DNA of 64,000 nucleotides from Takakia lepidozioides (lineage: Eukaryota; Plantae; Bryophyta). Where the stretch lies: the NCBI GenBank assembly GCA_030704615.1, contig CM060733.1, positions 36,084,001 through 36,148,000 of the forward strand. The letters are read 5' to 3'. Shown piece after piece: positions 3,001-30,200 of the stretch (positions are counted from its first letter, which is position 1; the number at the start of each line of letters is the position of its first letter). The notes beneath the pieces are model-generated. The model had not been told where the DNA came from and made no database searches. It was given only the letters and a program-made list of their open reading frames with translations. Position numbers and translations under genes: made by a program.

Positions 3001-4200
3001 TTGATCCCACGGTCATCACTTGCATTGAGCTCCAGTACTCTTGACTTGTAGAGCTCCTGTCTGTACTCACGCAGGAAAGAAAGCATTTGAAACCTAGAAA
3101 GTCAGAATCTTCTTAAATGATTTTGTTCAACATGGTCAGTCAGGTTGCAAAGAGCTTGGTGTGAATTCAGGATAGAGGGTCTTCGTGCACAGGTAACCAT
3201 GCACAATGGCTTTCATCTTCACGTCTATTTTGCTCGTCAAAACTTGAAAAAAGATCTCTGTCTCTCAATCACAAAAATGATTTACAGGTATTTGCAACTA
3301 AAGTGCGATTTGTTCTCAAAATAAACCCAAACACACCTTACTCATGATAATTGATCCCACGAAGCTAACCCTAAAATGTGGATGCTGAGTTCAAATCCAC
3401 AGAAAAGTGAAAAAACAAGTTAACTAAAAGTCTTCTCTGAATGTTTCATCACATAGCAGATTCTGGGGACAACGTATGTCAGTCCTACATTTACTACAAT
3501 CAGGGGGCAAGAGAGACATCTCACCCAAAAAGCTGATGAGCAATTGCTAGTGCAGTGGATGTTTTGCCAGTGCCAGGAGGCCCATAAAACAGTAGGTGTG
3601 GTAACTGCATGCCTTTCCCCCTCACCCAACTCAGTATTCTCCCTCTCTGTCAAGCCCCCTCAACTCGCAGACCATGAAATTAGCTTCAAACAGGAACATT
3701 CATACTGTGATTGTGACAACAGCTTCATTATAGTCAAGGAAAAACGCACATTTCCAGTTTCCAGCGTGTTAGTGAGTGTCCGCACAACCTCCTCTTGATG
3801 TGCAACGTCCTTTACCTGCCTGGGCCGACTGCCATGACATCCAACCCCCTAACTTAAGCTACTATCAAAGATAGACATTGGCATGGAGAGTCCTCCAAAA
3901 CCCTATCGACTAATTTCACATTCACCGAAAGAGTCTGAGGAGACCCTCAGCAGTGGCAACCCCTAACCATCGTACCCCCCAAAAACCCAAAACGCGCAAC
4001 TCCACATACATACTAAGCAAAAAATACATGTACCTGCATTCGCGCAGAGGAAACGCGATCTACGAAGAGGTAAACGTCATTACACTCAAACAAACTGGTG
4101 GAAGGATTCCCAAACCTGAAAACTTCGGTACAAGCGACTGGAGTAATTTCACTTACTACTTTTCAACCCACTGCTGCGTGCTGTGCATGACGGGCGCCAT
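80..4200 (-). CDS. RFC4: Replication factor C small subunit (RFC4 type), spliced; 3' end lies outside the window
   Basis: Exons with GT-AG borders: 4200-4157 ([15 protein letters not shown]), 3828-3750 ([15 protein letters not shown]), 3604-3525 (Walker A GPPGTGKT), 3060-2944 ([15 protein letters not shown]), 2675-2606 (Walker [10 protein letters not shown]), 1613-1540 (ALRRTME), 1368-1248 (SRC motif), 588-526 (GDLRRAIT), 139-80. Confidence 0.95.
1851..2395 (-). mobile_element. 5'-truncated LINE 3' end in an RFC4 intron
   Basis: Aligns by eye with 27085-27545 (shared blocks ctctagaaa.ccctt...aagcatcaa, cagcctcgaga, tgttcaaaggtagact), which encodes a LINE CCHC finger. Abuts a (GA)n tract; a second terminal fragment sits at 2448-2480. 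Confidence 0.65.
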
Positions 4201-5221
4201 CTCTCGCCCTTCCCCTTCCTCTCCCCTCAAGGAGAAATACCTGCGTCCTGCAACAGCGCGAGTTGTGGCGGGAAGCAGAGGAAGCAGTGCGGATGAAGCC
4301 TGTTACATCCCTCATCGTCGTCCTCATCTCTACAGCAACCACGGATGTATGAATGCATGTAGCGATGGATGGCGACCACCTTTCACAATACGAAAAGGTC
4401 AAAAGAAGGAGGAACAGTGCAGGATGGATTGGGTGCAAGACGATACGTGGTTCGTGCAACGTGCATGGCAACCCAACCCCCCATGACAGATCGCTCACTC
4501 CTCGTCTCATGTCTCTCCTTGTCCCTCTCTTTCCTTTGACACAAAGTATGGACAAGTTTCAACCTTTCTCTGATCTTTCTGTCTCTCTGGACCTGACGGG
4601 AGCAAACTTCCAAGTTTCCTTTGATGCAACCTGGAGGCTGTCTGGACCTTGAACGACGGCTTGTGTAGACCTTTGTAAAATCTTTGCATAGAAATCGGGC
4701 CAAAGTTTGTTGCACTCCTCTTTGAGACTTCTAGTTAGTGAGTGTGGACGCAGCGGCCAATGGGTGTTGGTCTCGTGATCACACAACCTTTGTGGACTCT
4801 GTATGCAGTAACGATTACGCTCAAGTGGCGGGCTTTCATCTCAGTTCTTTCAATTGTTTCCATAATTGTGGAATCGTTCAGTTAGCTAGTGCGTCAATCA
4901 CTGTGTCTGAAAGGCGTTCCACAAGATGGAGATGTTCTTGCCAGAGTAAGAAGTGCTCACTGGCGCGTGGGTGGTCGGAGGCCCGAATTCTGAAAAAGGG
5001 CTGTCCAAAATCAGTGAGCATCCTAGCCTAGTCCCGTGCCCTGTGGCGGCCCCAACAGATTCAAGATACTGAACAATACGAGCTGATCAACAACATTGCT
5101 CGCTGGTTACAGATTTACTATAGCTAGAAGTCCTATCTTATTGGGTCAACTGCACAGTCACATACGTGAAGAATCAAGACGTGATACTCGTCGGTGTATA
5201 TCCAGTGCACAATCAGGCCCC

Positions 5222-7786
5222 ATGGGCAGATCGGACGAGAGAGAAAAAGAGAAGACGGGCTTCAGGTCCCATGATATTGAGCTGAGTAGCTGGAGCGGGA
5301 TAGCTTATTCCATTCAGAAGAAGTTTGTAGGACGGAAAACAAAGGAGAATTTTATGCTTTATGTATTGCTGTGTATAGCGGGGTTTACATTTCTACAGTT
5401 CTTTGTTTACCAAAAGAGATCGAGTGACATTCGGGGCTCAGAGCTCCATGGCCTTCATAGTGCAACTACGGCGTATAATGCAGCATTTCTCCAAACCAAG
5501 AGCAGCCAGTGGAAACAATCACGGAAAGGTATTGTCCAACCATCTTTTTCCGAACAGTCTTGTTCAACAGGAATCACTGATCAGTTAGACTTCACACCAG
5601 CCCTCAGATACATTCTGCAGCATATGGGACTCAACAAGCTGTGACCAGGAGATGGAGCGGATACATGTACCTGAACACAGCAGTTTCTCTCTTCTCTCTC
5701 TTTCTTTCTCTCTCTCTCTCTTTAAGTGCTCCAGGCTACGGCAAACGTCAAGATTATATTCACATGAGTATATTCATTCTCTTGTAGAGCTCCATTGATT
5801 CCAATCGTTTGGTTTTCTCTTATTCTCGTACTGTGCACATAGGCCTGGCAAAGGCGTTGAAGTTGCTTATTCTCTCTGTGCACATCGTCTGACCCCGTTA
5901 AAGCTATATTTTATTCGTAACTAGGTGGTGCAAGACGTCCTGAATTGGTTTCAGACGTTGAGAGTAACTCGAACTTAGGCACAAAGGCTGCCAAGATTGC
6001 TAGAATGCAGAAGACCGTGAAAGAAGCTGCTGTATGCATGAGTTCTAAGTTACTGGCCGCCTCTTATGGTTCGGACTCCGAGGTGGACATCATGAAGGTT
6101 AGGACCGACTGCTTTCAAACGGCCTTGGTAAGCCAACAAGAGGAAGAAGAACTCGAGGAGATGGACAATGGGCGACAGGACTACTCTGTAATTCAGCAGG
6201 ATAAACACGAAACTGTACCTTATACAGGGACATCCGATCAGATAGCAGTATCATCAGATAATAAATTGCCAGAGGAGGTGCAAGATGCCGACACTTTCCT
6301 ACCCCTTAAGGACGTAGAGGAACAAGGGCTAACAGACACTGACCGTAACTGGTTCATGAGCTCTATTAGAGGCAAGCCTGGAAATGGTTTTGCAGAAGCT
6401 TTCGACTTCCCAAGGGAGCAGTCAGAGGGAAAGCTTCTCTGTGTTAAAGGAACCGACACTACAGATGGCACTCGGAACAGCTATGGGTTCCTGGATAAAC
6501 AGAAATTACCGCCTGGATCGACCCTCCTCAGTGGCGTGACTCTGATTGCTGATAACTATTGGGACTACGAGAACCCTTGGCACAGTATGTCGGCCATGAC
6601 AAATTTTGCAACTTGGCGGGCAATGAATGAGTGCGTGATTCCTGAACGTGTGGTGCTTTATCACTGGGGACAGCTCGTGACAGGCATGGGATCCTGGATC
6701 AGCAATGTGCTGCATGCAAGTCTGGGTAGGCACATGGAAGTAGACTCCCTCAACTATGGGGACGGTCCCGTTTGTTTTGAGCGAGCAATCGTGCACCGCC
6801 GGGGCTTGGGAGGAATCTCGCCAAGCAATATGCACGACCTGTTTTCTGTGGTTCGCTGCAAGGTTCGAAAGTTTTGTGGGATCACAGCGGGAAATGGCGA
6901 CATTGCTTCTACAGTGAAAGGGCAGTCTGTAGAAATCACAATTCTTACAAGAGAAGGGGCGCGAGCTTTCTCAAATGCTTCCGGCGTAGCTGCCGTCGTG
7001 GAGGGCGAGTGTAAGAAGGTGAAAGGATGCCGTTCACGTGTTCAGAACATTGGGGATCTCACCTTTTGTGAGCAGGTAATACTGCAACCCTGGAGGATTC
7101 ATCACGGGTAGACAATCTTTCATGTTGTCAAGATGCACGGTAGGAGTGAAGCTTTAGGGTCATGCAGAGAGTCAGAGATCTCAAACTGGAGACTGAGGCA
7201 AAGGTAGAGATGCGTGGAGTAAAGGGAAAAATTAGCATGCATGTTCAAAACTCGGGCCCGGCTGCCTGGAGCAAACCTCCTCCTATCAGTTATACTTCAC
7301 TTGAACCATCTGTTTGCTGCGGACTTCATCGTTCAACTTGTAAGTATCTTGGGTGGCATACTGCAGGTGGGGTTGATGAGCAGCACGGACGTGTTAGTTA
7401 CAGCGCACGGAGCTCAAATGACCAACATGATGTTCATGTCAGCCGGAGGAAGCGTCATGGAAATGTATCCCAAAGGCTGGCTGGAGTTTGCTGGCATTGG
7501 GCAATACATCTACCAGTGGCTCTCTGACTGGGCCCAAATTGTTCACGAAGGTGCTTGGCGGGACACAGAAGGGCCCGATTGTCCCTACCCTCCACACGAA
7601 GAGTTGAAATGCTTACTGTTCCATAAGGATATGGAAGTGGGCTTGAATGCCACACACTTAGCCCAGTGGACCGATCAAGTTCTGCATAGATTTCTGGAGA
7701 GAAAGGCTGATTTGCAAGAGAAGGGCGGGATCAGCAGTGACGATGATCATGTTTGCCTTTGTGATGACGTTGACAAATTTTACTAA
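5222..7786 (+). CDS. Glycosyltransferase family 61 (DUF563) type II membrane protein, 3 exons
   Basis: Exons 5222-5528, 5925-7075 and 7367-7786 with phase-compatible GT-AG junctions. N-terminal TM (FMLYVLLCIAGFTFLQFFVY), NPWHSM, VCFERAIV, and TFCEQV...HGAQMTNMMFM...VMEMYPKGW motifs. Confidence 0.88.
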
Positions 7787-9650: not shown

Positions 9651-9762
9651 TCTAGCGACGACCGAAGGTCGGAAGCTAGTTTAGCATAGAGCGGAAATAG
9701 GGTGCCATAGTGCCACGTCATCGTCGCCACATCATCGTAGCCAGGTCATCGTAGACACGTCA
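9651..9762. mobile_element. Helitron-like terminus (hairpin plus CTAG) with subterminal gccacgtcatcgt repeats
   Basis: tctagcgacgaccgaaggtcggaagctagt contains the hairpin cgacc-gaa-ggtcg and reads ...gtcgCTAG on the minus strand. The adjacent sequence is shared with 50614-50660. Confidence 0.55.
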
Positions 9763-10600
9763 GAGGGTTACAGAGGTGGGGGTTACAGAGGGTTACAGAG
9801 CGTTACATGGGTTACAAAGGGTTACAAGGGGTTACAGGTGAGGGTTACAGAGGGTCCTGGGGGTACATGGGTTACAAAGAGTTACATGGGTTAAGAGGGT
9901 CACAGAGGATTACATGGGTTGCAAAGTTTAACATAAGATTACATGGACTGAGGGTTACATAGGGGTGGGGGTGACACTCTGCGGTGCTACAGAGGGTTAC
10001 ATGGTGGTGAGGGTTACACCTAGTGAGGATTACAGAGGGTTACGAAAGCCATCGAAAGGCAGCCGGCTAAGCTCGGTCAATCCCTCCCCACCCCCGCTCT
10101 CATCCCATCGGCGTTGTCATCCCCGGATCGTCGTCGTTCTACGACACCAATCCGCCAGTAACCACGAACCACCATGTAACCCTCTGTACAACCCATATAA
10201 TCCCATGACCCTCTGTAACCCTCACTAGGTGTAACCCTTTGTAACACCGCAAAGTGTCACCCCCACCCCTATGTAACCCTCACTCCATGTAACCCTCTGT
10301 AAAACTTTGCAACCCATGTAATCCTTTGTGACCCTCTGTAACACCGCAAAGTGTCACCCTCACCCCTATGTAACCCTCACTCCATGTAACCCTCTGTAAC
10401 CCTCACCACCATGTAGCCCTCTGTAACCCATGAACCCTCTGTAATACCGCAGAGTGTAACCCTCACCCCCATGTAACCCTTTGTGACCCTCTATAACCCT
10501 CACCACCATGTAAACCTCTGTAACCCATGTAACCCTCTGTAACACCGCAGAGTGTCACCCTCACCCCTGTGTAACCCTCACTCCATGTGACACCGCAGAG
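9763..10600. repeat. Foldback (large inverted repeat) made of GGGTTAC/GTAACCC minisatellite units
   Basis: Left arm (about 9763-10042) is gagggttaca/catgggttac units; right arm (about 10173-10600) is the reverse complement; about 9895-10040 aligns to 10210-10335. Spacer about 130 bp. Confidence 0.85.
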
Positions 10601-11361
10601 TGTTCATTCTCTGTGTATGAGGTGGTGCATGTTGTGGAAGAAAAGCTAAGGGGCTACATAGGCTAGGGCTTGAAGACAACAAAAGCAACCACTTGGAGAG
10701 CATCAAGAAGCTCTAGATGACTCCAAAGGAAAGCATGTGGGTGAGAATTCTATCCATGATGATGTGAAACCAAGCCTAGAGTATTGAAGAGCTTGGAGCA
10801 CATGTGGGAGATCATTGGAGGTGGTCTTCATGAAGAAAGGAGATTGTGGCTCACGGCATGCATAACAACTTCAACCATACATTAGCATGTGACAAGACAA
10901 GGAAGGGGAAGGTGAAGCTCATGTATTCATTCTTTTTTTGCTTAAGTTTTGTGGTGGATGGTTGATCAAGCAAGTGATGCTTATGTGGAGCATGCTCTTT
11001 AGGGCTTGTGACTTCAAGTTTGAGAAGATGAGCTCTTGAATAGAGGTGTGGATACACATTATGATGAATGAAAAGAACACTGACGTCAAGAGGTGGAAGT
11101 GTGTGTGACTAGCCCATGCAAGGGAAAGCACATGGAAGATGACATACAAAATTCAAATTCAAGCAAGGCTTGGCGCTTGTCATTGGGCACATTAGCTTGC
11201 TATGAGTTCCAAGGAGATCAAAAAGAACTTGTCAATTTGGGATGAATGCATTGCAAAGTAAGATAATGCAATCTTGCATGCAGTTAGGGGGGAAGATACC
11301 ATGAAGAAGGTGTTTCTTACTATACTCTACAAACCCTAGTCTCCATACTCTTCAAGAAACT

Positions 11362-11565
11362 GTGTATGGGCTCCCTCTGCCCATCATACACTTTTGTGAA
11401 CAATGTATGGAACCCCTCTGCCCAACATACACTTTGTGAACAAAGTATGGGCCCCCTCTGCCCAACATACGTTTTTGTGAACAGTGTATGGGCTCTCTCT
11501 GCCCCACCATACCCTTTTGTGAACGGTGTATGGATGCAAGTGGAGAGACTTTGCCTACCATACGT
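11362..11565. repeat. Tandem array of ~40-bp partly palindromic units (4-5 copies)
   Basis: Unit gtgtatgggctccctctgcccatcatacacttttgtgaac repeated with small variation. Confidence 0.85.
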
Positions 11566-11935: not shown

Positions 11936-12532
11936 GTAGTTCTGTCTGTTGGTCATGAGCAAGAGTGTTTAGAGATAAGGGGAGACTAGTGGGATGAGAG
12001 CATTCTGGGATTAGGAATTGCTTTAGTTTCTCTTCCTTGTAGTCTTCTACCCTCTATGTAGGCCAAAACCTTTCCATAGGTAGAGGCAAAAGTCAGTCCG
12101 GGTTTGGGCTGGGGTGTCCTTGCAGGAACGACACTGTGGAGTGTTTTTTTTGGTGTGGGGGAGTTACTGTCTTGATTTTCTTGTGTTTGGATCCCCCCCG
12201 CACCTGCATGCTTGACTGTGCGCCATGTCAGTTTTGTGTGGGCACTTGTTTTCATAGGAGGTTGGTCCGGATTTGATCACTGGCCAATCCTAGAGCATGC
12301 TGTCGGTGGTGAGGCTGGGGTGATGATCAGTCAGACCACCATTGTTTCTCTTATGGTGAGGCTAGGTTGATGACCAGCAGACCATATGAGTGCTTGCAGT
12401 GGATGCAAGTGCAGGTTTATGTCACGAACCTAGTAGTCTAAGCCATAAGCCACAACAGGTTCTCTACCGGTTACCTTGTGGAAAGGGGGATTAGAGACAG
12501 GTTTACAACAGGTGTGGTTGTGAGTTTTCATC

Positions 12533-14200
12533 ACGGAGGTGCCACCAATTGCTGAGGAGAGTGCCGGTACGAGCACCAACGATACTAGTGGGTATACAAG
12601 ATGAGGTGTGCGGTTTAGGCCACCTTCACCTTCAGTGTCATCTGAGGAAGGTTCAGACCCAGAGTTAGGAGGATTCTTGCCGAGGGTGCAAGCCATTTCC
12701 GTGCCATTGTTGTGGGATACGATGGAGGAAATGTATGGAGCATCCAAGGGGCCACGTCAGTACTATGGAGTTGTGGGCACCATCGAGCTTGATGATTTCA
12801 TATAGGAGTTTGATAGTTGGTGTAATTTGCAGCAGATGCGCAATCCACAACTGTTTACACCTTTCATGGCGTGGAAGGGGCTGTTTCAGCACCTTGAGGG
12901 GCCGCCCATGGATGACTACCATGAGTTTAGGCGGGGACATGAGGTGGAGATTGAGGAATGGCAGGTGTATTGGTCACCTGACTATGTCTCCATCACTAGA
13001 GGCACAAGGGCAGTGGTGACACCGGCAGCTACACCGGCAGCTTCTGCAAGCAGCAGTGGGACGTCAAGTGGAACAGGAGCTGGGAAGTCCACCCAAGCTC
13101 CTGCTGCAGCACCAACACCCGTGCCTGCCTTTAACCCAGTTGTGGAGTTCTTCGAGGAGTTGAGGAGAAACTACCAAGGGATAAAGACGGAAAAATTGCG
13201 GAGTTTGCAAGAGTTCCAACGAAAGCCTGCCGAGAGTTTAAGGGAGGCTTACACGCGCATGAGACGATTGATAAATGTAACCCAAGGAGTTACGGAAGCT
13301 CAAGCAGTCCAATTCTGGTATGGGATATTGGACAAGGAGCTAAGGAGAAAGGTGCGGGATGCAACTCTCCTACAAGTGGCCCAACCCACCTTAACAAACG
13401 TGTTTTTGCTGGCAGAGCGGATAGAGCTCAATATGGTAGAGGAGCAAATGGTCATGGTGGGGTTTGGTCAGGAGACACAACGAAGTGGGGCTCCTAGCCA
13501 ACAACAACCACTACCCCAACGTGCTCAAGGCAACAAGGGGGCTCAGGAAAAGCCCAGGGAAGGGCCGAGATGATCTCAATTGCAGAGGTCACTTCCTTCA
13601 TTCTCAGACCAACAACAGTCGGGAGTGACATGTTGGGATTGTGGAGGACCCCATGTTAAGAGAGATTGCCCGGAAAGAGGCAAAGGGCCGGCACAGGCAC
13701 AGCCTACACAACTACAATGTGGGCATTGTGGCAAGTATGGGCATGAAGAGGCCTATGACTTGCATCCTGAGCTGCGGCCAGGCCAGTTCCAAAGGAACAA
13801 TAGTGGCCGAGGACAAGGCAATGTAGTCCAGAGAGGTAGAGGAGGCAGAGGTCGGGGTGGAGGACGTAACCAAAACCAAGGAGCACAGGGGTCAAGGTCA
13901 TGATCAAGGCATGCTGGATAGACTTGCCCAGCTAGAGCAACGTCTTGCTGCCATGGCCACTACTCATGTTGCGCCAGCTCCAAGACTTGAGGTTCAAGCC
14001 CCACCTGCACAACTTCCTATGCCTAGGGAAGACCAGATTGGTATGGGCTTCATGTGTGGAGCCGTACTTGCAAGACCATTGCATGTGGACTCTGCAGCTG
14101 CTATCACTCGAGCAGCAACGCGTGCTCCTGAGCCAAGAGGAGCGGATGTGGATTTTGATCCACAAAGAGGGGAAGCAAGCCGGCAGACAAGGCTTCCATA
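12533..14200 (+). pseudogene. gag: gag with zinc knuckles and RGG-rich region
   Basis: Frame broken by stops at 12602, 12803 and 13571. Retrotransposon gag motif FQRKPAESLREAYTRM; CWDCGGPHVKRDC knuckle; second damaged knuckle CGHCGKYGH; RGRGGRGRGGG. Confidence 0.8.
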
Positions 14201-14699
14201 GTCTTTCACATTGGCTGAGACAGTGCCAACTATGTCATCGATGGCACCCGCTCCCCCAAGTGTGTCAGAAGTAGAGCCACGAGTGTCATTACGGAGAGTT
14301 GATGTGGCTCGGGAAATGCCAATGGGTGGTGCAGCAAAGCAAGGTGCAGCCAGTACATTGTTGGGGGCGGCTACGGCAATTTGCCAAGCTCCATTGTTTT
14401 CTGCCACGACAATTGCAATGCCGGGGATGCGGCCAGCTGCAGTGTTTAGACTGGCAGCTAGACTCTGTGAGAGTGGTGATGCATCGGCACTATCTGCGGG
14501 GATAGCGGATCAGGTGCAGTGCATGGATGCCCTGGATTCAAGGGTGAAGACAGCCACAGCTGCGCCATGGCAAGCGGCAGCTGCAAGGTTGCAAAAGTTG
14601 TCAGCTAGACCAGCCATTGAGCGTAGTATGGTGACTCATGGGGTAGTTCTGGTGGACAATCAGGATGATGTGTTTCAGTTGGGTGGCCCGGCTGGGAGG

Positions 14700-15000
14700 A
14701 GGTATAGGCCACTGCGGGTCTTGTTGGACTCAGGAGCACAGCCATTGATGTTGGGGAAAGCAGCAATTGCAGGCTTGGGCCTTACAGAGGCGGATTTGAA
14801 GCCTTGTCCTTTCCAAATTCAAACATCTTTGGGCGGTTCAGAGAAAACACGAGGGATTACACGCCATAAGCTCTTCATTCGATTGCAGCCAGATCATCCT
14901 ACATATGGCTCTGTCATGAGAGCTAAAGCCATTGTTATGGACGCGATGTCTTATGATGTACTTGTTGGTGAGGCTGTGTTATACCCAATGGGCTTTACTT
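14700..15000 (+). pseudogene. Retropepsin-type aspartic protease domain
   Basis: VLLDSGAQ active-site motif (Asp at 14727) and downstream YDVLVG. Confidence 0.8.
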
Positions 15001-15440
15001 TGGACTTTTGGGAGGAAACGGCATCCTACAGGCCGGAATGGCAGTCAAGGGATGGTGGGCGTGCACTGCTCCCAGTGCGGTTTATTGGGAATATAGCGGT
15101 GGATCATAGGAACATGATGCCCACATTGGCTGCATCCTCAGGGGTGGTGGCTTGGGGTGGTGAGCTCTTGGAGGGCAATAGCCATGCAGATGATAGGCCA
15201 CCACCTGATGAGGACAAACAATTGACATACAATGCTGATTTGCTTCCTCATGTGTCTGTTCATATTCCATTGTGGGGTACAGTTAGGAATTTGCATCGAG
15301 TAGCAGGCGAGTGTGTGCACCAAGCATGGCAGGAGGCCTATCCATTGGTGAGTGAGGGGAGTTCAGTGACATCACCTGGACCTCCTCAGTTAGCTCCTTT
15401 GGATACAGTGCCCATTACCTGGCAACCACCTGACTCAGGG

Positions 15441-16400
15441 ATTTGTTTGCTAGACCTGTTTGGAGGCATGAGCACTGGGCTTGCAGGAGTGTTGCAAGCT
15501 AGGATTAAAGTACGCAAGTACTTGTATGTGGAGAAGGATGAGATAGCTCGGCGTATTTCTATGCGCCACATCGCCTTGCTCACACACCGGTATCCTGAGT
15601 TGTTGTCTCTCTCAGCAATTCAAGGGTATCAAAAGGCCTTGCCAATAGACATTACCTTGCTGGGGGCGGATAATTTGGACCGGCATGGTGCCATTGACTT
15701 GGTGATAACTGGATGGCCTTGCCAAGGACACTCTCCCACTTGTCATGGGAACGGCTTGGATGATGCTCGATCGCATTTGTTTTGGGAAATATTGAGAGTG
15801 TTGCGTGACTTGCAGACGAGACAAGTGCAACCTCTAGCCTATATCTTGGAGAATGTTCCTCTTATGGGGGACTCTCGGGCCAGGGTTATGGCCAGTATGC
15901 ATCAAGTGCGGTCTAGGATTGGATTGGCGGTGCTATTGGATGCAGCAGCGGTGGGATCACAAGCATCGACCTCGATTGTGGTGGACCAATCTTGCACCAC
16001 CAGAGCTGCTCAAGAGAGCATACAATACCATTCAACGGCCACCCAATCTCACAGTTGAGGGCATTTTGGACCAAGGGAGGCAACCACAGAGGGTGCGACA
16101 TGATGACCATCCACCTCTAACAGTGGTAAATCGAGTGGGGCAACCACGTGCGGCCTTGCCTACGCTCATGAGCTTTCCCTCGTCTCATGCTTTTCAAGAT
16201 AATGGTCCTGGGTTGATTTGGACAGTGTGCTACAGCAATTGGTGGAGCCCAATGCAGATGAGCGAGAGCAGGCAATGGGATATGCCACGGGCACTACAAC
16301 TGTGCCAACTCTGTTAGAGGCATCACGCCGACATGTGTTGGGTCAAGCAATGGATCTAAATTGCTTGACATGGGTCATTGGCTTGTGCATGGCTGAGCAA
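15441..16400 (+). pseudogene. C5 cytosine DNA methyltransferase domain inside pol
   Basis: Motif I LDLFGGMSTG, II YVEKD, IV VITGWPCQG (catalytic Cys at 15720), VI YILENV, VIII HRPRLWWTN after a frameshift near 15963, IX EPNADEREQAMGY after a frameshift near 16218, X RRHVLGQAMD. Confidence 0.9.
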
Positions 16401-16919
16401 CGGAGGTTGCAGACAGTGGTGGCTACTTATGCATTCCCATTTGATATTGTATCCTCTCTGCCAACTGGGACGGTTGAGGTAATGAGTGGGGGCAAACACA
16501 GGATCATGGGGTGCAAACACCCATGGTAGATGTGGGATGAGATGCGGTAAGAGAGAGTCCTTAGATCTCTCAAGCAGCAATATGAGGAGTGGGGAGAGCC
16601 ATACACTGAGGATCAGTTGGAGGCCAAGGTGGCCAATGTTTTTGAAGAGGTTGAGAATGTTTCTTCCCCAGATGATGTTCTCAAGGTGGTTATGGCAGAG
16701 CAAGTGGAGGCTATGCCACAGTCAGCTTGGGCGGACAAGGCCCAAGAGGTTGCTATCTAGCAACCAAATGATTCGTCTCCTACCCCCAAGCCTGATGTAC
16801 CCAAGGTTACAGTCACTGAGGACAATTGGGAACCAGATGTTGGACCTACAGTCACCGAAGGAGAGAGACGGAGGATCCAGCGATTTCTAAGGGCTTATAG
16901 AAATTGCTTTGCCTTCGGT

Positions 16920-18260
16920 TTGAAGGATTTGGGGAGTTTGAAGGGTCAGGAGATTCGTATTGATTTGGCAAGTGACACGCCAATCTTTCGAAGGCCCTAC
17001 CGGTATAGTGACATGGAGAGGTCATTGATCCAGTCACGGACTATGGAGTTGTTCGAAGTTGGATTGGTGGAGTTGTCAGGCGGGGAGTATGCCTCGGCAA
17101 CGGTGATGCCAGCTAAGAAGGATATCTATGGCAATTGGACAGAAAGAAGGATGTGTGGGGACTATCGTCCTATGAACCGTTAGACTAAGTCCGATAGATA
17201 TGTCATGCCAACTCCAGAGGAAATCTTTGATGTCATTGGGCATGCGAAGGTGTTTAGCACATTGGACTTGCGATCTGGTTACCACCAATTGCCAATCAAA
17301 GAGGCTGACAAGCAAAAGACGACATTCTGGGGGATTGACCAACATAGGAAGGATTGTTTGTACCAATGGCGCTTCCTACCGTTTGGGTTGAAGAATGCTC
17401 CGACAGAGTTTCAGAGGGTTATGGATAGGATTCTCGCAGGGCTAGACTTTGCCCAGTGTTACATTGATGACATCATCGTCTTTAGTGCTACGGTTGAGGA
17501 GCATGAGAGACACCTTCAGGTGGTGTTTGAGCGCTTGAGAGCGCATAGGTTGAAATTGCACCCTGGGAAATGCAAGTTCTTCCATAACCAGATTGAGTAT
17601 CTGGGCCACATGATATACCCTGGAGGATTGGGTGTTCAAAAGACGAAGGTGGAGGCCATTGCACGCATTCCACGCCCCATAGATGTTAGCAGAGTTCGTG
17701 CTTTCATGGGATTGACAAACTACTATCGACGGTTTGTCAAGGGATTTAGCAGCATTGCAAAGGCTCTTGCTAAGTTGACCAAGGTGGGTCAGGAGTGGCA
17801 GTGGGAGGAGGAGCAGGAGGAAGCCTTTGAGGAACTCAAGGCTCGATCGACTTCTGCACCTATTCTGAGGCGGCCTATTCGGGGGTGGCCTTTCCAGCTA
17901 CATACGGATTGGAGTATGCTGGGGATTGGAGCAGTGTTCACACAGATGGATGATGAGGGAAGAGAGTTCGTAGTGGCATATACTAGCCGCTCAAACAATG
18001 ATGCCGAGGCGAAGTATAGTTCCTATGAGAGGGAGTGTCTAGCTGCGGTATGGGCAGTGGCACATTTCAGATGTTATCTCTATGGCAATCTCTTCACCCT
18101 TGTCACGGATCACCAACCGTTGAAGTGGTTGATGGAGTCAGACAAGCTTACAGGGAAGCTTGCACGGTGGCCACTTATGCTTCAAGAATACGACTTTCAG
18201 GTGGTGCATCGAGCCGGTATTGTCAATCGGGATGCAGATGGATTGAGTCGTAATCCATGC
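16920..18260 (+). pseudogene. Reverse transcriptase and RNase H
   Basis: RMCGDYRPMN, FSTLDLRSGYHQ, LPFGLKNAP, YIDDII, EYLGH; RNase H FQLHTDWS, YSSYEREC, LVTDHQPL, DADGLSR. One in-frame stop at 17181. Confidence 0.95.
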
Positions 18261-18639
18261 ACGAGCAAGCATGATGATACTGGAGCTCGGTGGGATGGTG
18301 AGACGGATGAGGAGATGGTGCCAAGATGGCATGCATCTGCTTTTTTGTGCATCCTAGCAATGGGAGCTCAAGTTGGTCCATCCCATAGCATTGGTCATGT
18401 AGATGGTGTGCATGACAATCCGGAGATCAGTGAGGAGCTTGGTGGTGCTAAAGATGTACATGAAGATGCAGCAGTGTTGGCCTACCTTCGTATTGGAGAG
18501 ACAACAGCCAGGGTGACTGCTAAGGAGAGAGATCGGATCCTACAACGAGCCAAAAGGTTCAGGGGACTCACCTACTCCGAGTATGGGAGGATGGACGAAT
18601 GAGGATTGTGCCTCATCCAACACAACGAGCGCGATTGGT

Positions 18640-20060
18640 ACGCCATGCCCATGAGGAGTTGGGACATTTTGGGGTGCGGCGCACTCATAGTTTGCTGCAA
18701 GGACAGTACTGGAGGCGGGGCATGCACACGGATGTGCAATAGTGAGTGGCAAGTTGACATTCTCCATCTGGAACATATCCACACATGCGTATATAAATAC
18801 TTAAAAAACCAAATGACCATCAAAACTGGAAGTTGCGGACGAGGCTTATAAAAGTGGAGACGGTCATTTGCCTATTTAAGGATTTCTGCTCACATATGTG
18901 TATGTGTTCCAGGTGGAGAACATCAACATATTGGATAAAGTGGACATGGAGAAGCACCCCATTACGAAGCAGGAGACACTACAAAAAGAGCTTCAAAGGG
19001 CATACCATGTAACAGGCCCCAGTATAATCAAAGACGAAACCCCATTCATTCAATGGGCAATTGAATGGTTGCCCATCCAAATGATTTTCGTTTGCTTTCA
19101 ATCTTTGCCACTCTGTTCAACATACCATGTATTAGGTCCCGGACTAATATGAGATCAATCGAAATTCATTCGATGGCTCAACGGATGGTTGGCCATCGAA
19201 ATGATTTTAGTTCACTTTGAGATGTATGATAGAGTACGAGCTTCTTTCAATGCATCTACTCCACAATTGCATCATTTACCCATTATGGGTTTGGGCTATC
19301 GTTGGAGTCTTGACTTCGCAGGCCCATTGCCACTAACGATTCACCATAACAAGTATGTGCTGGTGATGGTGGAACATTTCTCCAAGTGGATTGAACTGGT
19401 GGCATTGCCTGACAAGGCAAGTGAGGGGGTTGCGTATGCATTCTTAGATCGAGTGCTTAGCCAATTTGGTGCTCCAGCCGAGGTACTCACGGACCAGGGG
19501 AGAGAGTTCTTGGGGGAGTTTCAGGCTTTGTGTGAGCAAGACTTGATAGATCACCGCACTACTTCTCGGGATTATCCCGAGGCTGATGGCCTGGCAGAGA
19601 AGGTTGTACAAACAGTCAAGCGAGGCTTGTGCAAGTATGGCTTGCAGAAGGGACACTTAGGAGATTGGGACCTTCAACTACCTTGGTTGGCCATGGGCTA
19701 CAGGTTTAGCAAACAAACATCACTTGCCTCGTTCTCGCTGTATTTCCTTATCTTTGGCCGAGAGCCAGATTTGCCTACATCTATTCGCAGGGAGACTGCA
19801 AAAGTTATCAACCTTGATGATCCGGATGTGTGGACACAAGCATGTACCCAGCAGGCAGAGTTGTTCAAGAGAGTCATGCCTATGGCTTTTGAGAACCTTG
19901 CTATTGCCCAACACCGAAACACGTTGAGGTACGCCACTATATGTGGAGGGGGATATCGGCCAGGTGTTCGGCGTTTCCACCCTGGGAACTATATGTATCT
20001 GCAGCAGACAGCGACTACGACTTTGGATGTCACAGCAGGGCATGTGATTTCTAAGGGTCC
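18640..20060 (+). pseudogene. Integrase (HHCC finger split by an insertion, DDE core)
   Basis: HEELGHFG..RT at about 18650; core WSLDFAGP, VLTDQGREF, DGLAEK. Confidence 0.92.
18753..19220. mobile_element. ~470-bp hairpin-rich insertion in the integrase zinc finger
   Basis: Imperfect ~70-bp inverted repeat spanning 18753-18927, then two related ~100-bp palindromic units starting at 19001 and 19121. Integrase resumes at YDRVRASFNA. Confidence 0.7.
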
Positions 20061-20209
20061 GGGAGGTGTTGCCTTCAGGAGTGTTGATTCTGTGGGGTCA
20101 AGATGGCATGGTATGGAAGGACCATGTGCGCAATTGTGCGCCATGTCACCTTCCATATGTGGATGGGAGGATAGATCCCAACCTTGCAGTGGTACCTGCA
20201 GGGTTGCGT

Positions 20210-20359
20210 TGCATGCTATGTGGGCATGTTGGTGGTGCCGCGACCATGTTGGTGTGTGACAAATGCTCAAGGGGGTGGCACATGGGATGCTTGACACGGC
20301 CACTTGAGGAGGTTCCTAGTGGAGAATGGTTGTGTCCACGATGCCTTGGACATAGGTAG
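20210..20359 (+). pseudogene. PHD finger at the C-terminus of the polyprotein
   Basis: CMLC...MLVCDKCSRGWHMGCL...VPSGEWLCPRC is a complete C4HC3 with the conserved Trp; stop at 20357-20359. Confidence 0.92.
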
Positions 20360-20702
20360 TGGGTATGACAATGGTGGAATTGACAAGTGATCCAAGGTCT
20401 AGCTGATGGGAGCTCAACGCCATGGATACTTAATTGAAGATCATGGATTGCAGGAAGGCGAGTAACGATGGGGCTACTTTTGCACCCGGCCTCTTGATCT
20501 ATTGACTTTAGATACTGGGACATGTGCGATTGAAGACCAAGCGATGATTTTATTGAGATGGATACTTGTCAGCTATCCAGTGTTAGAGGGACCTAATCAC
20601 CAGCTAGGGGGGCGATTGTGGCATAGTTTTCTAGGATTGTGTGCTTAGAATGTATGGTGGACAACGATGTATGTTGTGGCACGATGCTTAGGTGCACGAC
20701 AT

Positions 20703-23700
20703 ATGAATGATCCAAACTGCAACAAAAAAATCAAATAGAACCCAAATCAATAAATGGTTGAAAACATTACGCAAATCCAAAAATCCGCCCACCGGCATTG
20801 ACAACGACCTGTACGAGTTTGCAAATGCAACTCAGTCATCCAAAATCATTAACCTCTAACACAAAAATCCAGAATTGAGAGAAATTTCAAAAACCGAATC
20901 AATGGATATCACAGATGACGACAATTACGATGTAGATCTTGATATCGTGCACAATGGAGATCAACATCAAATAGCTAAATATTTTGTGATAAAAAAATAC
21001 AAGCTCAACACTTCGCAAGAATCAGCATTTGAACGTTTCATAGATCCTCAAAATCACCATCTCGATGGAAGAAAACAAATGTTAATGTATGTGGGAGGTG
21101 CTGCCGGAACGGGAAAGACAGAAATAATTAAAGCAATCCAAACGTACTTCATGAAAACCAAGAGATCCACAATATTGAAAATCGGTGTCTACACAGCAAA
21201 CGCCGCAACCCTCATAGGGGGATCAACCATCCACGCTCTATTGAGACTGAAAATCAGCTAGACTGTCAACGAATCCGACACAAAAAATTTCATAAACGAA
21301 TGGTCCGGGACAGACTATTTGATTATAGACGAAGTATCTATGGTCGGATGCAACATAATCGCCGATATCTATCTGAAGTTACAAAAATTCAAATCGAACA
21401 TGTTACCATTCGGAGGACTCAACATAATGTTCATGGGCGATTTCATGCAGTTTCCACCAGTCACTGACGCGCCTCTATATTCAACGAACATACAACCTAT
21501 ATTCACATTCACAAAATACACACAAAAAAAGATTATAGGCAAGAGCCTATGGGAAAATTACATACGGCCTAACACAATCATATTGACCCAGCAAATGAGA
21601 CAAGCCCATGATCTACAATATGCGAAATTGCTACAGAATCTACGTGAAGACAACTTCACCCAAACGGATTTCGAATTATTACAGACAAGATTCATGTCGA
21701 ACCTGAAAATCAACCTCTTCAACGAACCATGGGATAAAGCAACGTACATTGTACCTCGAAACCAGTTAAAGAACGCCATCAATCACCAAATGATAGAATA
21801 CTACACACGTAAATCTAACCACGCATCCTACACCATAGTAGCCACAGACACCTACAAGAAGCACGTACTCCGCGACGAGTTCCAATTCGCAATCCGACAG
21901 ACCGTACCCGGGAATAGAAGCCACAACCTTCTTCCATTTTTGAGATTGTACAAAGGAATGACAGTCATGCTAACCGACAATTTGTATCATAGATTGGGAC
22001 TTGTAAACGGTGCAGTCGGACAAATAGTGAGGATCTCAACAACAGAAGACGATTGGATCGTATGGGAAGATAATTTAATGCACCTGCCAAATCACGTATT
22101 AATCGACTTCGGGGAATTCATCAGTCAACACTAAACATTGAGCAGCATAAATTTAGAAAATCTCCTAGAAAACGTAGTGCCCATCATACCTGTTTCAAGA
22201 ACGTTCGATTATCACCACATGGAGGATGAACTGAAAAAACCAAATAAATTCAAAATCAGCAGGCGTCAATTGCCTCTGATACCCGCATACTGCCTAACCG
22301 ACTACAAAGGCCAAGGCAAAACTTTCGACGGGATAACCATCGACTTGCAAAAACCACCAGATGGACACCCCTTGAACATGCACAACATTTACGTCACACT
22401 GTCTCGTTTGCGTTCCCTACAAGGACCAGTATTACTTCGGGACATTAAGTTCGAAGACATCTAAGGAGCCAAATTCAAGACAAGCTCACTAGAGTTCATG
22501 GCTCCACAAGCCGATTGTAACGTCCAAAAACAAAAATCACATAAGACCACAGAACACATCAGCACATTGAATACAAACCTTGCCGCCAAAACGCTCCAAC
22601 CAAGACACACATACGGAGAAATAAAAATGCCAACCAATTCTAAAGCCGAACATCCCACACCGATAGAATCAAATGAAAACCAAACTTGCTCAAAATTAGC
22701 TCCTGCACCGCTCAAAATCATAGAAATCAATTCAAAAGACGAACAATCCGACACAGAAAACACAAATTTCCGCCAATAAACATATTGGCACGAAGATCTC
22801 TTATTGACGGCGCACGACGAACAAATCATCTTGGATGACAATGGATGGTTATGTGACCAGCATTTGGCGGCCGGGATGCAAATACTATTTGATCAGGGAC
22901 TGGAAACACAAAACTACCAGTAACATGCATATTCGACTCTTCTGGGCAGAACGTCAACAACAACCATTGGATTCGACAATGATAAATCCGAACGAAACGA
23001 ATTGTCAATGTACGGTGTTCGATTCCAGCATGCCCGCGGATAAGCGGCTACAGACCGAAATAGAACAACATCTCGCGAAATTAATCCCAGTCCCACAATT
23101 CAATTATATCTATGCCGATGTCATGCAACAGACTGACGGTTCATCCTCTGGCGTATTTGCAATAGCTTATGCCACGGATATAACATTCGGATTAAACCCC
23201 GCACATTCCCAATACGCAACATCCGCTATGAGAACCCACTTGAGAGATTGCAACCCATAAGTGGACAAATTGTGTAGCCACTGGAGTCGACATTTTAGTG
23301 AGGCCATCAAGCATGCCATTTCCAAAACAACATTAAATTTAAAATGGTGTAGTGTGCGTGGTGCTGGTTTGCTATTGCGTGGGATCCAGCCCGATGTTGG
23401 GAGTGCCATAGGTGTGTGCGTCAGTAATTGTTGTTTCCTTCGAGGCTCATTGTCCGGATGCTATGGAGGGCTTGGGTTTCTCAATTTTTCTGGATGTTTT
23501 TTTTTCTTTCCTTATTTCGGGAGGGCAATCAGTGCAACTACATGGGGTGGTTATTTGATGTGATGTCTGATGCTTGGGGAGGGACGGACGGAGGGAAGGG
23601 GAGGGGTATCTGCATACCGGGCAGAAAAGGGGGTTCAACTCCCCCTCACTTCTTGGGCATAGATAGGGGTATGGCTATGATGGTTATACTTTTGCATAGT

Positions 23701-27200: not shown

Positions 27201-30200
27201 TAGAAATCCCTTTACACAAGCATCAACCTGCTGTGTGTGGTTTGCCCAATAACTAGGCCTCAAAAGGGCCTGGGCTTTTGGCTCAGCCTCGAGACTTTCA
27301 AAGTTTGTAAACAGAGGTACAGGCACAATTCCCTTGATAGATATGAAGAGAGCGTCTCTCTGGTGAGACGCGATCGGGCGCAGGAGGCGCCAACCCCGGA
27401 CAATGAATCAGAAGATGAATACTGTCTTCAGGTTGCCCACACAACGGGCAATTCCAATCTCCCTTTCCTCTTTGCTTCTGTTTGCTGTTCAAAGGTAGAC
27501 TTCCCTTTCTCTCCCATAGGGGGAGAGAAAGGCAAGGAAAGGAAAGAAAGGAAGTGCAAACAAACTTGAAAGAGTCCTCAGGAAGCCCAAAGAGAAGTGC
27601 AAACAGATTGCAAATGGTCACTTACCCGACTCAGAATTCTGCCCAGAGGCGTAGAGTCAAAAAAAGACATGGGGGCCCGGAAAATTGAACTATTGATGCC
27701 CTCAAAGAAAGCTCTGGAGCCCCTTAGGCCCAAAGCAACAAAGAACTGTGACCGTCCAAAGACAAAAACACCACTGGCAATGGCGAGAGTAGCATATACT
27801 CCAACCAGCAGTCGATCTGATATAGCTGGATTAGAAATCTCCGTGGCAAGCCAGTAGTTGCTGGACATCTGTAAAATAACGAAGGTAATTTGAGCCACCA
27901 TCATCCCCATACAGATCCACCAACCTTTTGAGATGGTAACATAGTCTCTGTAAATTTGGGAGCCAGAATCACCTGTCTCTTTCTCCTCCTCTTGTGTCAA
28001 CTGGCTTGACTGGTTTGGCAGCTCTCTCCGGCTACTATCCCGGCTTAACACACAACTTGATTTTTTCAACGATGGGTTCCTCCCAAAACTGGACGATGTG
28101 TTTCTGAAAAGAGTGATCTCTTCTGCAGCATTTTCCTCATCGGCGGCATGGCTAATTCGCGCACCTCCCATGGCTTCATGGTGAGCGTAAACAAGTTGTT
28201 CAAAGACTGTTCCATCTTTCATCAGCTCATCATACCTACCTTGTTGTTTAATTTCTCCCCCCTCCATGACCTAAGAAGACCAACATCGCAAGGAAGCGTC
28301 AGTTGCAAGTACGAACTTCAACAAAAAGCATCACATGTTTCCCTCAGGCCTCTCAGTTTCAGATGACACTTGTCCTCCAGCTCTACGTCGCTAAAATGCT
28401 GTCCTTAAAAAAAAACGGAGCAGAAACTCTAATTTAAAGGCTCAGAAGATCAATCCTCAATCTCATCCCTCCTACATTCTGCTTTTGACTTACTAATCGG
28501 ACTCCATGCTGGGGAGAAGAAGTGACTGGCAAAAATAGAAGGTTATGGAGAGACTACCAGGATGAGATCAACACTAGGCAGGAACTCCACTTGATGAGTT
28601 ACCAGAATCACGGTCTTGTTTGCCAGGGCCCCCATGACACAGTTCTGCACAAATTAACATAGAACAGAGGATGCATTGTCAGGGGAAAGGATGCTCTCGA
28701 AACTCAGAACATATTGGACTATCAAGATTGTGTATATTCAGCTGGCAAAGATAAAAGAAGGTGGAAGATGAGTGGACACATGACAGGTAAAAGGTTTTCA
28801 ACAAGGAAGGCAACAAAACCTTGAAAAGGCTGGCCTGCGTGTGTGCATCAACAGCACTGAAAGGATCATCCAGAAGATAGATGCCTGCATTTCTGTAAAC
28901 TGCCCGAGCCAGTTGGATTCTTTGCTTCTGTCCTCCACTCATGTTGATTCCTCTCTCTCCTATCTCTGTCATGTCTCCATATGGCATGCTCTCCAGGTCT
29001 TTATCTAATGCACAAGCTTGGAGTGACTCCAGGTAGCGGGTTGTGTCCATTGGCTGTCCAAAGAGAACATTTTCCTGCAGTGTTCCACTCTGAATCCAAG
29101 CTGACTGGGCCACATATGCAATGCTGCCAGACACTTTCACCTGAGATTGGCAGATAATGATGGATCAAAACTTCATCTGTTTGACATTGTCTAATCGAAG
29201 CTGAGAAAATTGCTCCCATCATGTCACTGTTGGATATTAAATTTGCATTTCTTTTGCCCAGAGTGACTATCGCTGCATGTTGGGATTTTTCAGTCAAGGC
29301 AAAACTATGTATTACATGTCATGATGTAGTGTAATATTTTTCATCTCCAGAAATACAAATACCCAGAGACGTACAGAACTTCTTTGAGATGTGATAATCA
29401 TTGACAAACATGAATTTCTGCTACTGCAACAAGACAAATATTAAAATGCCAGCTGAGAGCATACATACAACTTGTTCAAAGGCTTTGAGAAGTACATGAC
29501 ATCTTCAGGAGGGTGTGTGCATTTCACAAAGAACTTGGGGAGGTCAACGACGTAGACTACCGTGACACATACAATGGTGGTCATCAAAGCCCAAAAAGCT
29601 TACATTTCCTGATAGTTTTGGAATTTCTCCAAGAATAGAATAGAGGAGGGTAGACTTTCCAGAACCAACGGCTCCACAAACAGCCACTTTGTTCCCGCGC
29701 TTGACTTCCAAGTTGATGCCCCTTAGAGTAGATTTGTGTAATGTGGGTTCCCAGCTCAATGTGCCATCCTTAATCTCCACTGCTAGCTGGTCTTGATCTG
29801 ATTCTTCCTCAACCACAGCATCCTCCCGGAGTTCATCATCCTGCAAGTACTGGCTCAGTCGGGTTAGCGATAGCTGAGCTTGGATTACAATACTAAGAAC
29901 ATCGGGCACCTGCCGAATAGGATCTTGAATGATCCGAAAAGCAGCAAGAGCTGTGAATGCAACAGAAGGGGTGAGTTCATGGCCCAGGGCACAATAAGAT
30001 GTGAATACAACTGATGAGACCAGGGATGGGGTCAGCCAGAAGAGTATAGTGCCCATTGATCTCCTCCGCTGCACGGAAGAAAGCCACTTGAATTCAACAC
30101 TACGGAGGCCTGCCACCATCTCTCGAAATTTATCTTCCCAGGCCTGCAATACAGTCTTCATACTTTAAGAATGTGATTACTTACCAATCAATGTCTGTAA

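Follow-up and report, generated by a model that had tools for sequence, protein, structure and literature searches.

A Ty3/gypsy retrotransposon of Takakia lepidozioides with a DNMT3-type DNA methyltransferase domain ahead of a conserved stop codon

What use does a retrotransposon make of a silencing enzyme? The question is raised by a locus of the bryophyte Takakia lepidozioides, for which a Ty3/gypsy element with its own C5 cytosine methyltransferase (DNMT) had been predicted within a stretch of 64,000 nucleotides (contig CM060733.1, positions 36,084,001 to 36,148,000; in the following, the window). A DNMT in a gypsy element has been known since 2018, and the paper in question left open how a retrotransposon would use it, its plant example being inactive in yeast (de Mendoza et al., PMC5890265). 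The reading that we favor, with a probability of roughly one half, is that the locus is the decayed remnant of an old Ty3/gypsy lineage of green plants. Its DNMT3 would enter the particles in amounts similar to the capsid protein and, inside them or shortly afterwards, would methylate newly made element DNA prior to integration.

The element extends from about 11950 to 20701 and has the order Gag-PR-DNMT-RT-RH-IN-PHD, which includes the Gag-PR-RT-RH-IN order of Ty3/gypsy elements. Together with the PF00145 match described below, this bears out the original prediction of a Ty3/gypsy element with a C5 DNMT. The Pfam scan covered 28 ORFs of the window, and the following features were assigned:

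11950..12255, + strand: candidate 5′ terminal repeat A1 (weak assignment)
12722..13900, + strand: gag with two CCHC-type knuckles, decayed (PF03732, E=8e-4, below the cut-off)
14616..15086, + strand: aspartic protease (LLDSGA at 14721; alignment with relatives)
15438..16412, + strand: C5 cytosine methyltransferase domain, DNMT3-type by ranking and predicted fold (PF00145; frameshifts near 15962 and 16219)
16758..16766, + strand: TAG-CAA-CCA, an in-frame stop that is conserved and probably leaky, closing ORF1 (homologous stop in relatives)
16818..18257, + strand: reverse transcriptase and RNase H (PF00078, 4e-31; PF17917, 9e-35)
18590..19899, + strand: integrase (PF00665, 3e-14)
20210..20344, + strand: PHD finger at the integrase C-terminus (PF00628, E=1.6e-10)
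20589..20701, + strand: polypurine-tract (PPT) block and terminal repeat B, ending CACGACA (similarity to the PPT region of relatives)

The copy in the window is dead. In gag, which shares 46% identity with a Marchantia protein, stop codons are present at 12803 and 13571 and the frame changes near 13900. Further damage comprises one or more stops in the spacer before the protease, which has no Pfam match in this copy, and three frameshifts over the Gag-PR-DNMT part. The RT-RH region contains a single decay stop, at 17181, and the integrase is split by an insertion of about 480 bp (about 18740–19222), at which contigs of related copies skip 484–486 bases. Three in-frame stops are found in the linker between DNMT and RT; those at 16527 and 16548 sit where relatives have residues, and the one at 16758 is conserved in relatives. 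At both DNMT breaks, the length of the window differs from that of contigs assembled from public runs for related copies, and therefore the two breaks are not common to all copies. Relatives keep open frames, which supports the claim of a dead copy in a family that may not be dead.

The ends of the window copy are poorly preserved. Its PPT block is 85–93% identical to the PPT region of relatives, and the end motif CACGACA of repeat B lies at 20695–20701. The start of A1, its TATA side and its TTTTCA end have short likenesses to the A repeats of relatives, most of them non-significant (best E=0.024). The repeats A2 and B2 are missing, leaving PPT, B and the weak A1. Searches within the window revealed no LTR pair and nothing clear for a target-site duplication, a clean self-primer or tRNA genes. 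In public runs, the read depth was about 30-fold higher from the bin at 12002, in the A1 region. Two public runs that are presumed to be RNA covered parts of gag, PR, the first part of the DNMT, and RT; their depth was lower over PR-DNMT than over RT/IN, and neither this difference nor the gaps in coverage were counted as evidence.

The type of the methyltransferase was analyzed from its motifs, its sequence and a predicted fold. As originally described, protease and DNMT motifs I (LDLFGG, 15450), II (YVEKD, 15525), IV (GWPCQ, 15711) and VI (LENV, 15846) share one stop-free frame of the + strand (14202–16058), and the remaining motifs follow across the two frameshifts: motif VIII (HRPRLWWTN, 15964) is in another frame, and motifs IX (EREQAMG, 16260) and X (LGQAMD, 16338) are in the first frame again. 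PF00145 was matched with E=1.1e-10 and 42 bits (cut-off 22), and 197 of 312 scored positions were identical to the Marchantia protein P0075. Motifs I to X are non-permuted and include the catalytic Cys, Glu and Arg-x-Arg, as in DNMT3-type enzymes, and no BAH or chromo domain was scored in the ORFs scanned; both points had been made before. When the relative P0007 from Calypogeia was used as query against solved sequences, the top matches were DNMT3A and 3B (8e-11), followed by DRM-type plant enzymes (4e-7 to 2e-4), HaeIII/HhaI (4e-4 to 3e-3) and DNMT2 (9e-3). An AlphaFold model of the open DNMT domain of locus L014 (pLDDT 73.5, pTM 0.82) was compared with Foldseek, and DNMT3A/B/C filled all listed top ranks (E about 1e-11, TM 0.55–0.58). 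In the ESM Atlas, Streptophyta and phage DNMT clusters were tied at 0.96. Judged by the phmmer ranking and the predicted fold, the DNMT of the element is of the DNMT3 type. The layout had been likened to DNMT3-type or bacterial enzymes; the first half of this proposal stood, and a bacterial origin was rejected (HaeIII 4e-4 versus DNMT3A 8e-11). Identity with DRM, CMT or MET1 was also rejected (DRM 4e-7 versus 8e-11 for DNMT3A).

The position of the domain relative to RT was analyzed next to its type, with loci from a metagenome scan that yielded 324 relatives, the best 80 of which were used. The DNMT-RT junction is spanned by 49 of the 80 loci, or 43 after collapsing near-identical copies, and 40 of these belong to the window's clade. 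An in-frame stop is present at the homologous place in 39 of the 40 (30 TAG, 9 TAA); because 39 of the 40 loci represent one subfamily, the stop at the DNA level rests on three lineages, i.e., the main subfamily, L014 and the window. The single locus without a stop reads TAC. The stop is followed by CAA-CC in 38 of the 40 loci; the window and L014 read CAA-CCA, and most others read CAA-CCC, which falls short of the full CARYYA context. On the + strand of the window, this context follows 10 of 2663 stop triplets. Proteins end in agreement with the stop, about 70–100 residues past motif X, in five Marchantia ORFs (1278–1281 aa), the Calypogeia protein and several others. Sphagnum proteins terminate at the same place, their stop being read from the protein ends, and the peptide that precedes the stop in the main subfamily is the same, residue for residue, as the C-terminus of the Sphagnum protein P0067.

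The DNMT had been placed within pol. This did not hold for the window's clade, in which the conserved stop parts Gag-PR-DNMT from RT-RH-IN; because the stop lies between DNMT and RT, the DNMT is part of a Gag-PR-DNMT ORF1 and not of the rare Pol. The type I leaky stops of TMV and BNYVV similarly have UAG followed by CAA and pyrimidines; their consensus is CAA-UYA, in contrast to CAA-CCA (window, L014) or CAA-CCC here, and it is by this analogy that we infer Gag-PR-DNMT to be the abundant product and RT-RH-IN-PHD its readthrough extension (PMC2754532). In the plant assays described there, the CAA-UYA context allowed 32% readthrough in transient expression and 6–10% in stable lines. The stop might instead be bypassed via splicing or internal initiation, and the main subfamily indeed has an in-frame ATG two codons past the stop and reads CAA-CCC. 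However, the ATG is missing in the window, L014 and L045, although the frame and CAA-CC are kept, and we consider this bypass unlikely. It would concern the expression step only, and ORF1 would still be the abundant product. A stop of this kind does not occur in subclade B (L076–L078), where the DNMT is in frame with RT, as in the algal relatives; a Gag-level dosage of the DNMT is therefore not universal.

Homologue searches with the PR-DNMT ORF gave 74 plus 10 matches, the named ones from Marchantia, Calypogeia and Sphagnum. Among these 84 PR-region homologues no member lacking the DNMT was found; those without a PF00145 match mostly stop before or inside the domain, as judged by inspection. 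In Marchantia, Gag-PR-DNMT is a single ORF, and several full-length ORFs of the family are present in Marchantia polymorpha. Wherever the metagenome contigs reach, the order is Gag-PR-DNMT-RT-RH-IN-PHD, and the PHD finger is kept in the relatives. Closterium has the order PR-DNMT-RT. Searching with a DNMT profile, which gave 499 clusters at E<=1e-30 (the top 150 of them listed), and a final homologue search (102 matches) revealed a second architecture, RT-RH-DNMT-IN-PHD, with the DNMT between RNase H and integrase. Its named members are all chlorophytes, namely Haematococcus, Monoraphidium, Chromochloris and Scenedesmus. Motif conservation was quantified in 112 polyproteins in which DNMT, RT and RNase H are each nearly complete (104 with the second architecture and 8 with the first). 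All 112 retain the catalytic Cys, the E-N pair in motif VI, the second Arg in motif VIII and the G..D pair in motif X; the sampling favors this count, because a DNMT profile was used to retrieve the set. In 83 of the 112, E stands in place of P in the PC motif.

Quick IQ-TREE trees (LG+G4) were calculated for RT-RH and DNMT from 41 of the 104 polyproteins, all 8 of the first type, five loci and the window, with 10 extra rows in the DNMT tree. Both trees separate the two architectures, with a support of 100 (RT-RH) and 97 (DNMT), and the DNMT of the window clusters with Marchantia, Calypogeia and Sphagnum-type loci (support 98). For 55 shared rows, the patristic distances of RT and DNMT were correlated (Mantel r=0.81, with 0 of 999 permutations as high); 18 of 25 strong RT splits reappeared in the DNMT tree and 3 were in conflict. 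The congruence of DNMT and RT, a comparison that had been suggested at the outset, was thus found in trees of element sequences, i.e., without host DNMT3. These trees, built without an outgroup, fit one old capture plus a relocation within the polyprotein; two captures of related enzymes would be the alternative.

Selection was analyzed by dN/dS (Nei-Gojobori, 67 loci collapsed to 56). Between lineages, the DNMT value was 0.12–0.17 for the three pairs with estimable dS, dS being saturated in three others. Among the decayed copies of the main subfamily, the values were 0.50 for DNMT, 0.53 for PR, 0.41 for Gag, 0.34 for RT, 0.37 for RH and 0.41 for IN, and about 0.9 for one close pair. A DNMT value of 0.50 in this subfamily would be as expected from decay after insertion, yet it suggests a weaker constraint than on RT. 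The values support the view that the DNMT is kept under purifying selection across the family. It had been stated that members lacking the domain, or neutral evolution within it, would speak for a one-off capture; neither was observed in the 84 homologues and in the comparisons between lineages. That the element has merely taken up a host DNMT3 gene once, or carries it as a neutral passenger, would suit a broken copy that is the sole one in the window. Liverworts, peat moss and Closterium, however, share both the domain and its location, and purifying selection and congruent trees contradict a one-off event as well, leaving it a negligible probability.

The termini of the relatives differ from those of conventional LTR elements. 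A repeat A of about 290–340 bp precedes gag, and the PPT is followed by B-A-B or by B alone, so that instead of two flanking direct LTRs the structures A-int-B-A-B or A-int-B are found. The clade is therefore not a conventional LTR element but has split A-B-A-B repeats, which are DIRS-like and combined with Gypsy domains. As stated earlier, elements of this kind are known: Gypsy-DNMT3 elements in Klebsormidium and DNMT3 in Symbiodinium elements are described (PMC5890265). TG...CA ends, a PPT and a short target-site duplication are present in relatives; the window has the PPT and the CA end. Both ends are available for 12 loci: 9 of them show a perfect 4-bp duplication of the target (8 sites), 2 show one with a single mismatch, and 1 is cut by the contig end; 5-bp duplications did not occur. 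Membership in DIRS/Ngaro was rejected, because the elements have a DDE integrase (PF00665) rather than a tyrosine recombinase and 4-bp duplications. A chromovirus-type (Tcn1, Chlamyvir) chromodomain at the integrase C-terminus was also not found; a PHD finger is located there instead.

The joints between the repeats give hints to the replication cycle. Of 13 B|A joints, 11 read CA-NN-TG, and the two exceptions come from a single rearranged copy. Of 12 A|B joints, 9 are flush and 3 contain 15–19 extra bases; in L049/L074 (one copy), the extra bases start with the letters that follow A1, i.e., those of the primer site. In 18 of 30 loci, the stretch of 14 bases that follows A1 finds its best complement at A positions 164–167, about 25–30 bases past a TATA-like box, and the divergent L078 has the same pairing with different letters on both sides. 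One further locus, with its pairing at 181, was left out of this count. These sequences suggest that the relatives prime their own reverse transcription and that the A|B joint is the junction of a circle. A 2-LTR circle that can be cut at either site should, however, also yield the mirror product A-B-A-internal-B, which none of 28 loci shows, and the A-int-B form can equally come from recombination between the two Bs.

Taken together, the following cycle can be proposed. The DNMT, as it lies ahead of the conserved stop, is probably synthesized abundantly together with the capsid protein, and RT-RH-IN-PHD would be produced through occasional readthrough. The protease would release the DNMT from the polyprotein, and the enzyme would be packaged at capsid level. 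Reverse transcription would be self-primed, the reverse-transcribed repeat would be B-NN-A, and the ends of the cDNA would be joined into a circle, which the integrase would open at the internal CA-NN-TG site. The DNMT would methylate the cDNA, probably at CG, so that new copies would land pre-marked. De novo CG methylation has been described for the Symbiodinium retrotransposon DNMT3s (PMC5890265). The depletion of CG (o/e 0.27–0.62) and of CHG in the elements is compatible alike with self-methylation and with methylation by the host.

The PHD finger may steer integration via histone H3 tails. Its best solved relatives are those of CHD4, PHF12, KDM5A/B and KMT2D, several of which read H3 tails unmethylated at K4. 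The likeness to KDM5/CHD4 would also suit a different role of the DNMT, namely that, carried into the nucleus by Gag or by the integration complex, it is active on chromosomal DNA, be it at the insertion site, in older copies or in competing elements. Chromatin is a substrate of DNMT3 enzymes, a Gag-level output far exceeds the enzyme needed for one cDNA, and the chlorophyte DNMT adjoins the integrase. On the other hand, no PWWP or ADD targeting module was present in the polyproteins seen, and the K. nitens methylome is described as ordinary and plant-like despite such elements (PMC5890265). Chromosomal action is thus possible, yet clearly less probable than methylation of the cDNA.

Still less probable is a third role, in which the DNMT modifies element RNA or an RNA:DNA hybrid, or brakes the element's own transposition. 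The enzyme of KnitGypsy-Dnmt3, the Klebsormidium nitens element, yielded no DNA methylation in yeast, a result that the authors call inconclusive, and RNA methylation (for a LINE enzyme) and self-limitation were suggested by them (PMC5890265). The frequent E for P in the PC motif means that specificity may have shifted. These points are opposed by a sequence and predicted fold nearer to DNMT3A/B than to DNMT2 (E 8e-11 versus 9e-3) and by the invariant glutamate of motif VI, and packaging with methylation of the cDNA remains our preferred reading.

Among described systems, KnitGypsy-Dnmt3 is the most similar. Gypsy domains, an intronless, non-permuted Dnmt3-type domain under purifying selection, and DIRS-like A1...B-A2-B repeats are reported for it (PMC5890265), and an intronless DNMT under purifying selection was also found here. 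The paper confines the capture to the K. nitens lineage and places the DNMT in the Pol ORF, and the text available names no Marchantia (PMC5890265); in contrast, the family analyzed here extends to land plants and has a chlorophyte sister group. A DNMT in the RT/RNase H ORF is the case for subclade B and the algae, but not for the window's clade, owing to the stop. The integrase here carries a PHD finger, and the word PHD does not occur in the paper's text and text supplements, Fig. 4c aside (PMC5890265). The likeness to KnitGypsy-Dnmt3 is one of description, as no homologue named Klebsormidium came up.

SymbioDIRS-Dnmt3 also combines a retrotransposon Dnmt3 domain, with CG activity shown in yeast, and split repeats, but it is of the DIRS class and a separate capture according to the paper (PMC5890265), whereas the window's family has a DDE integrase and 4-bp duplications. 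The EpiLTRs of Cymbomonas and Euglena are likewise Ty3-like with a cytosine DNMT and a chromatin reader; their own features are a DNMT sister to DNMT4, a DAM and a chromodomain, and in the portions available they are set apart from streptophyte Gypsy-DNMT3, which is cited as previously described (bioRxiv 10.64898/2026.05.21.726589). Predicted self-priming and presence in non-seed plants are shared with Tf1/Sushi and plant Tcn1 chromoviruses, which, unlike the present family, have paired LTRs and a chromodomain (PMC6317226). The survey of Neumann et al. 2019 required LTR pairs, and the words PHD and methyltransferase are absent from its available text (PMC6317226). No literature was found on the family in bryophytes or chlorophytes, on the stop, or on the Marchantia gene ids in a search that extended to sources other than subscription papers and Repbase, and the accessible parts of PMC10952607 and PMC11982613 contain nothing on these elements. 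What is added to prior knowledge is the range across green plants, the conservation of the stop and the structure of the termini.

A wider scenario can be put forward only tentatively. A lineage as old as the chlorophyte-streptophyte split would have kept one DNMT3, relocated it within the polyprotein and, in land plants, joined it to Gag ahead of a leaky stop; DNMT-loaded particles would methylate a cDNA primed by the element itself, integration would proceed from a circle that is opened at an internal att site, and LTR finders would miss the lineage, with the Marchantia ORFs annotated as host genes. If the lineage does predate that split, the capture was no quirk of one alga. The termini suggest a DDE integrase working on an internal circle site, which would be unusual for Ty3 elements. 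Studies of bryophyte methylomes and counts of DNMT genes could also be affected by additional de novo methyltransferases of transposon origin. Because Marchantia polymorpha, a genetic model, has several full-length Gag-PR-DNMT ORFs, the question of what a retrotransposon does with a silencing enzyme is directly testable.

Upstream of the element, the decayed Ty3/gypsy copy at about 11950-20701, degenerate short repeats form two arrays at 9750-10600 that are opposed as inverted arms, with complementarity of up to 92% across 108 nt. They are followed at 11352-11513 by four tandem copies of a unit of about 41 bp, and degenerate G-rich repeats lie between this array and the weakly assigned 5′ terminal repeat, candidate A1 (11950-12255). 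Read depth showed that the tandem array and the G-rich repeats have further copies elsewhere in the host. On the other side, decayed PIF1-like helicase ORFs (PF05970), which probably belong to a Helitron, occupy 20860-23560 and begin shortly 3′ of repeat B, the end block of the element. The integrase region is interrupted by an insertion, the second half of which has a high depth in public sequencing runs, and which is possibly a MITE. The insertion and the host-like genes of the window are as follows.

Insertion within the integrase and host-like genes in the window
18740-19222; insertion of about 480 bp, imperfect palindrome (18753-18927) and short direct repeat
7223-7786, + strand; glycosyltransferase-61 fragment
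27578-32863, - strand; multi-exon ABCC transporter
35988-37526, + strand; Rab-GAP TBC protein, single ORF
56531-58138, + strand; MATE transporter, single ORF

Among the relative loci on metagenome contigs, one with few stops (L014, 600-6810) was strongly depleted in CG (observed/expected 0.27) but not in CWG (1.56), whereas the values for decayed copies were 0.58 and 0.71-0.77, respectively; the L014 side of this comparison is a single copy. The L047 contig carries, alongside its main copy, additional DNMT-bearing elements of a divergent type at 600-5500 (- strand) and 18500-19800.

Two full-length Gag-PR-DNMT ORFs of 1281 aa, Mp_Vg00370 (P0340) and Mp_Vg00540 (P0341), are located on the Marchantia V sex chromosome and are annotated as hypothetical host genes; in the latter, DNMT motif X deviates. 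The polyprotein P0279 has the full order RT-RH-DNMT-IN-PHD and is labelled as originating from a bacterial MAG (Minisyncoccia), which probably reflects algal contamination of the bin. In the set P0085-P0318, glutamate replaces the proline directly ahead of the catalytic cysteine in 83 of 112 polyproteins. For many chlorophyte-type polyproteins of this set, PF00145 is also missing from the precomputed Pfam lists, and therefore, they would be overlooked by domain screens.
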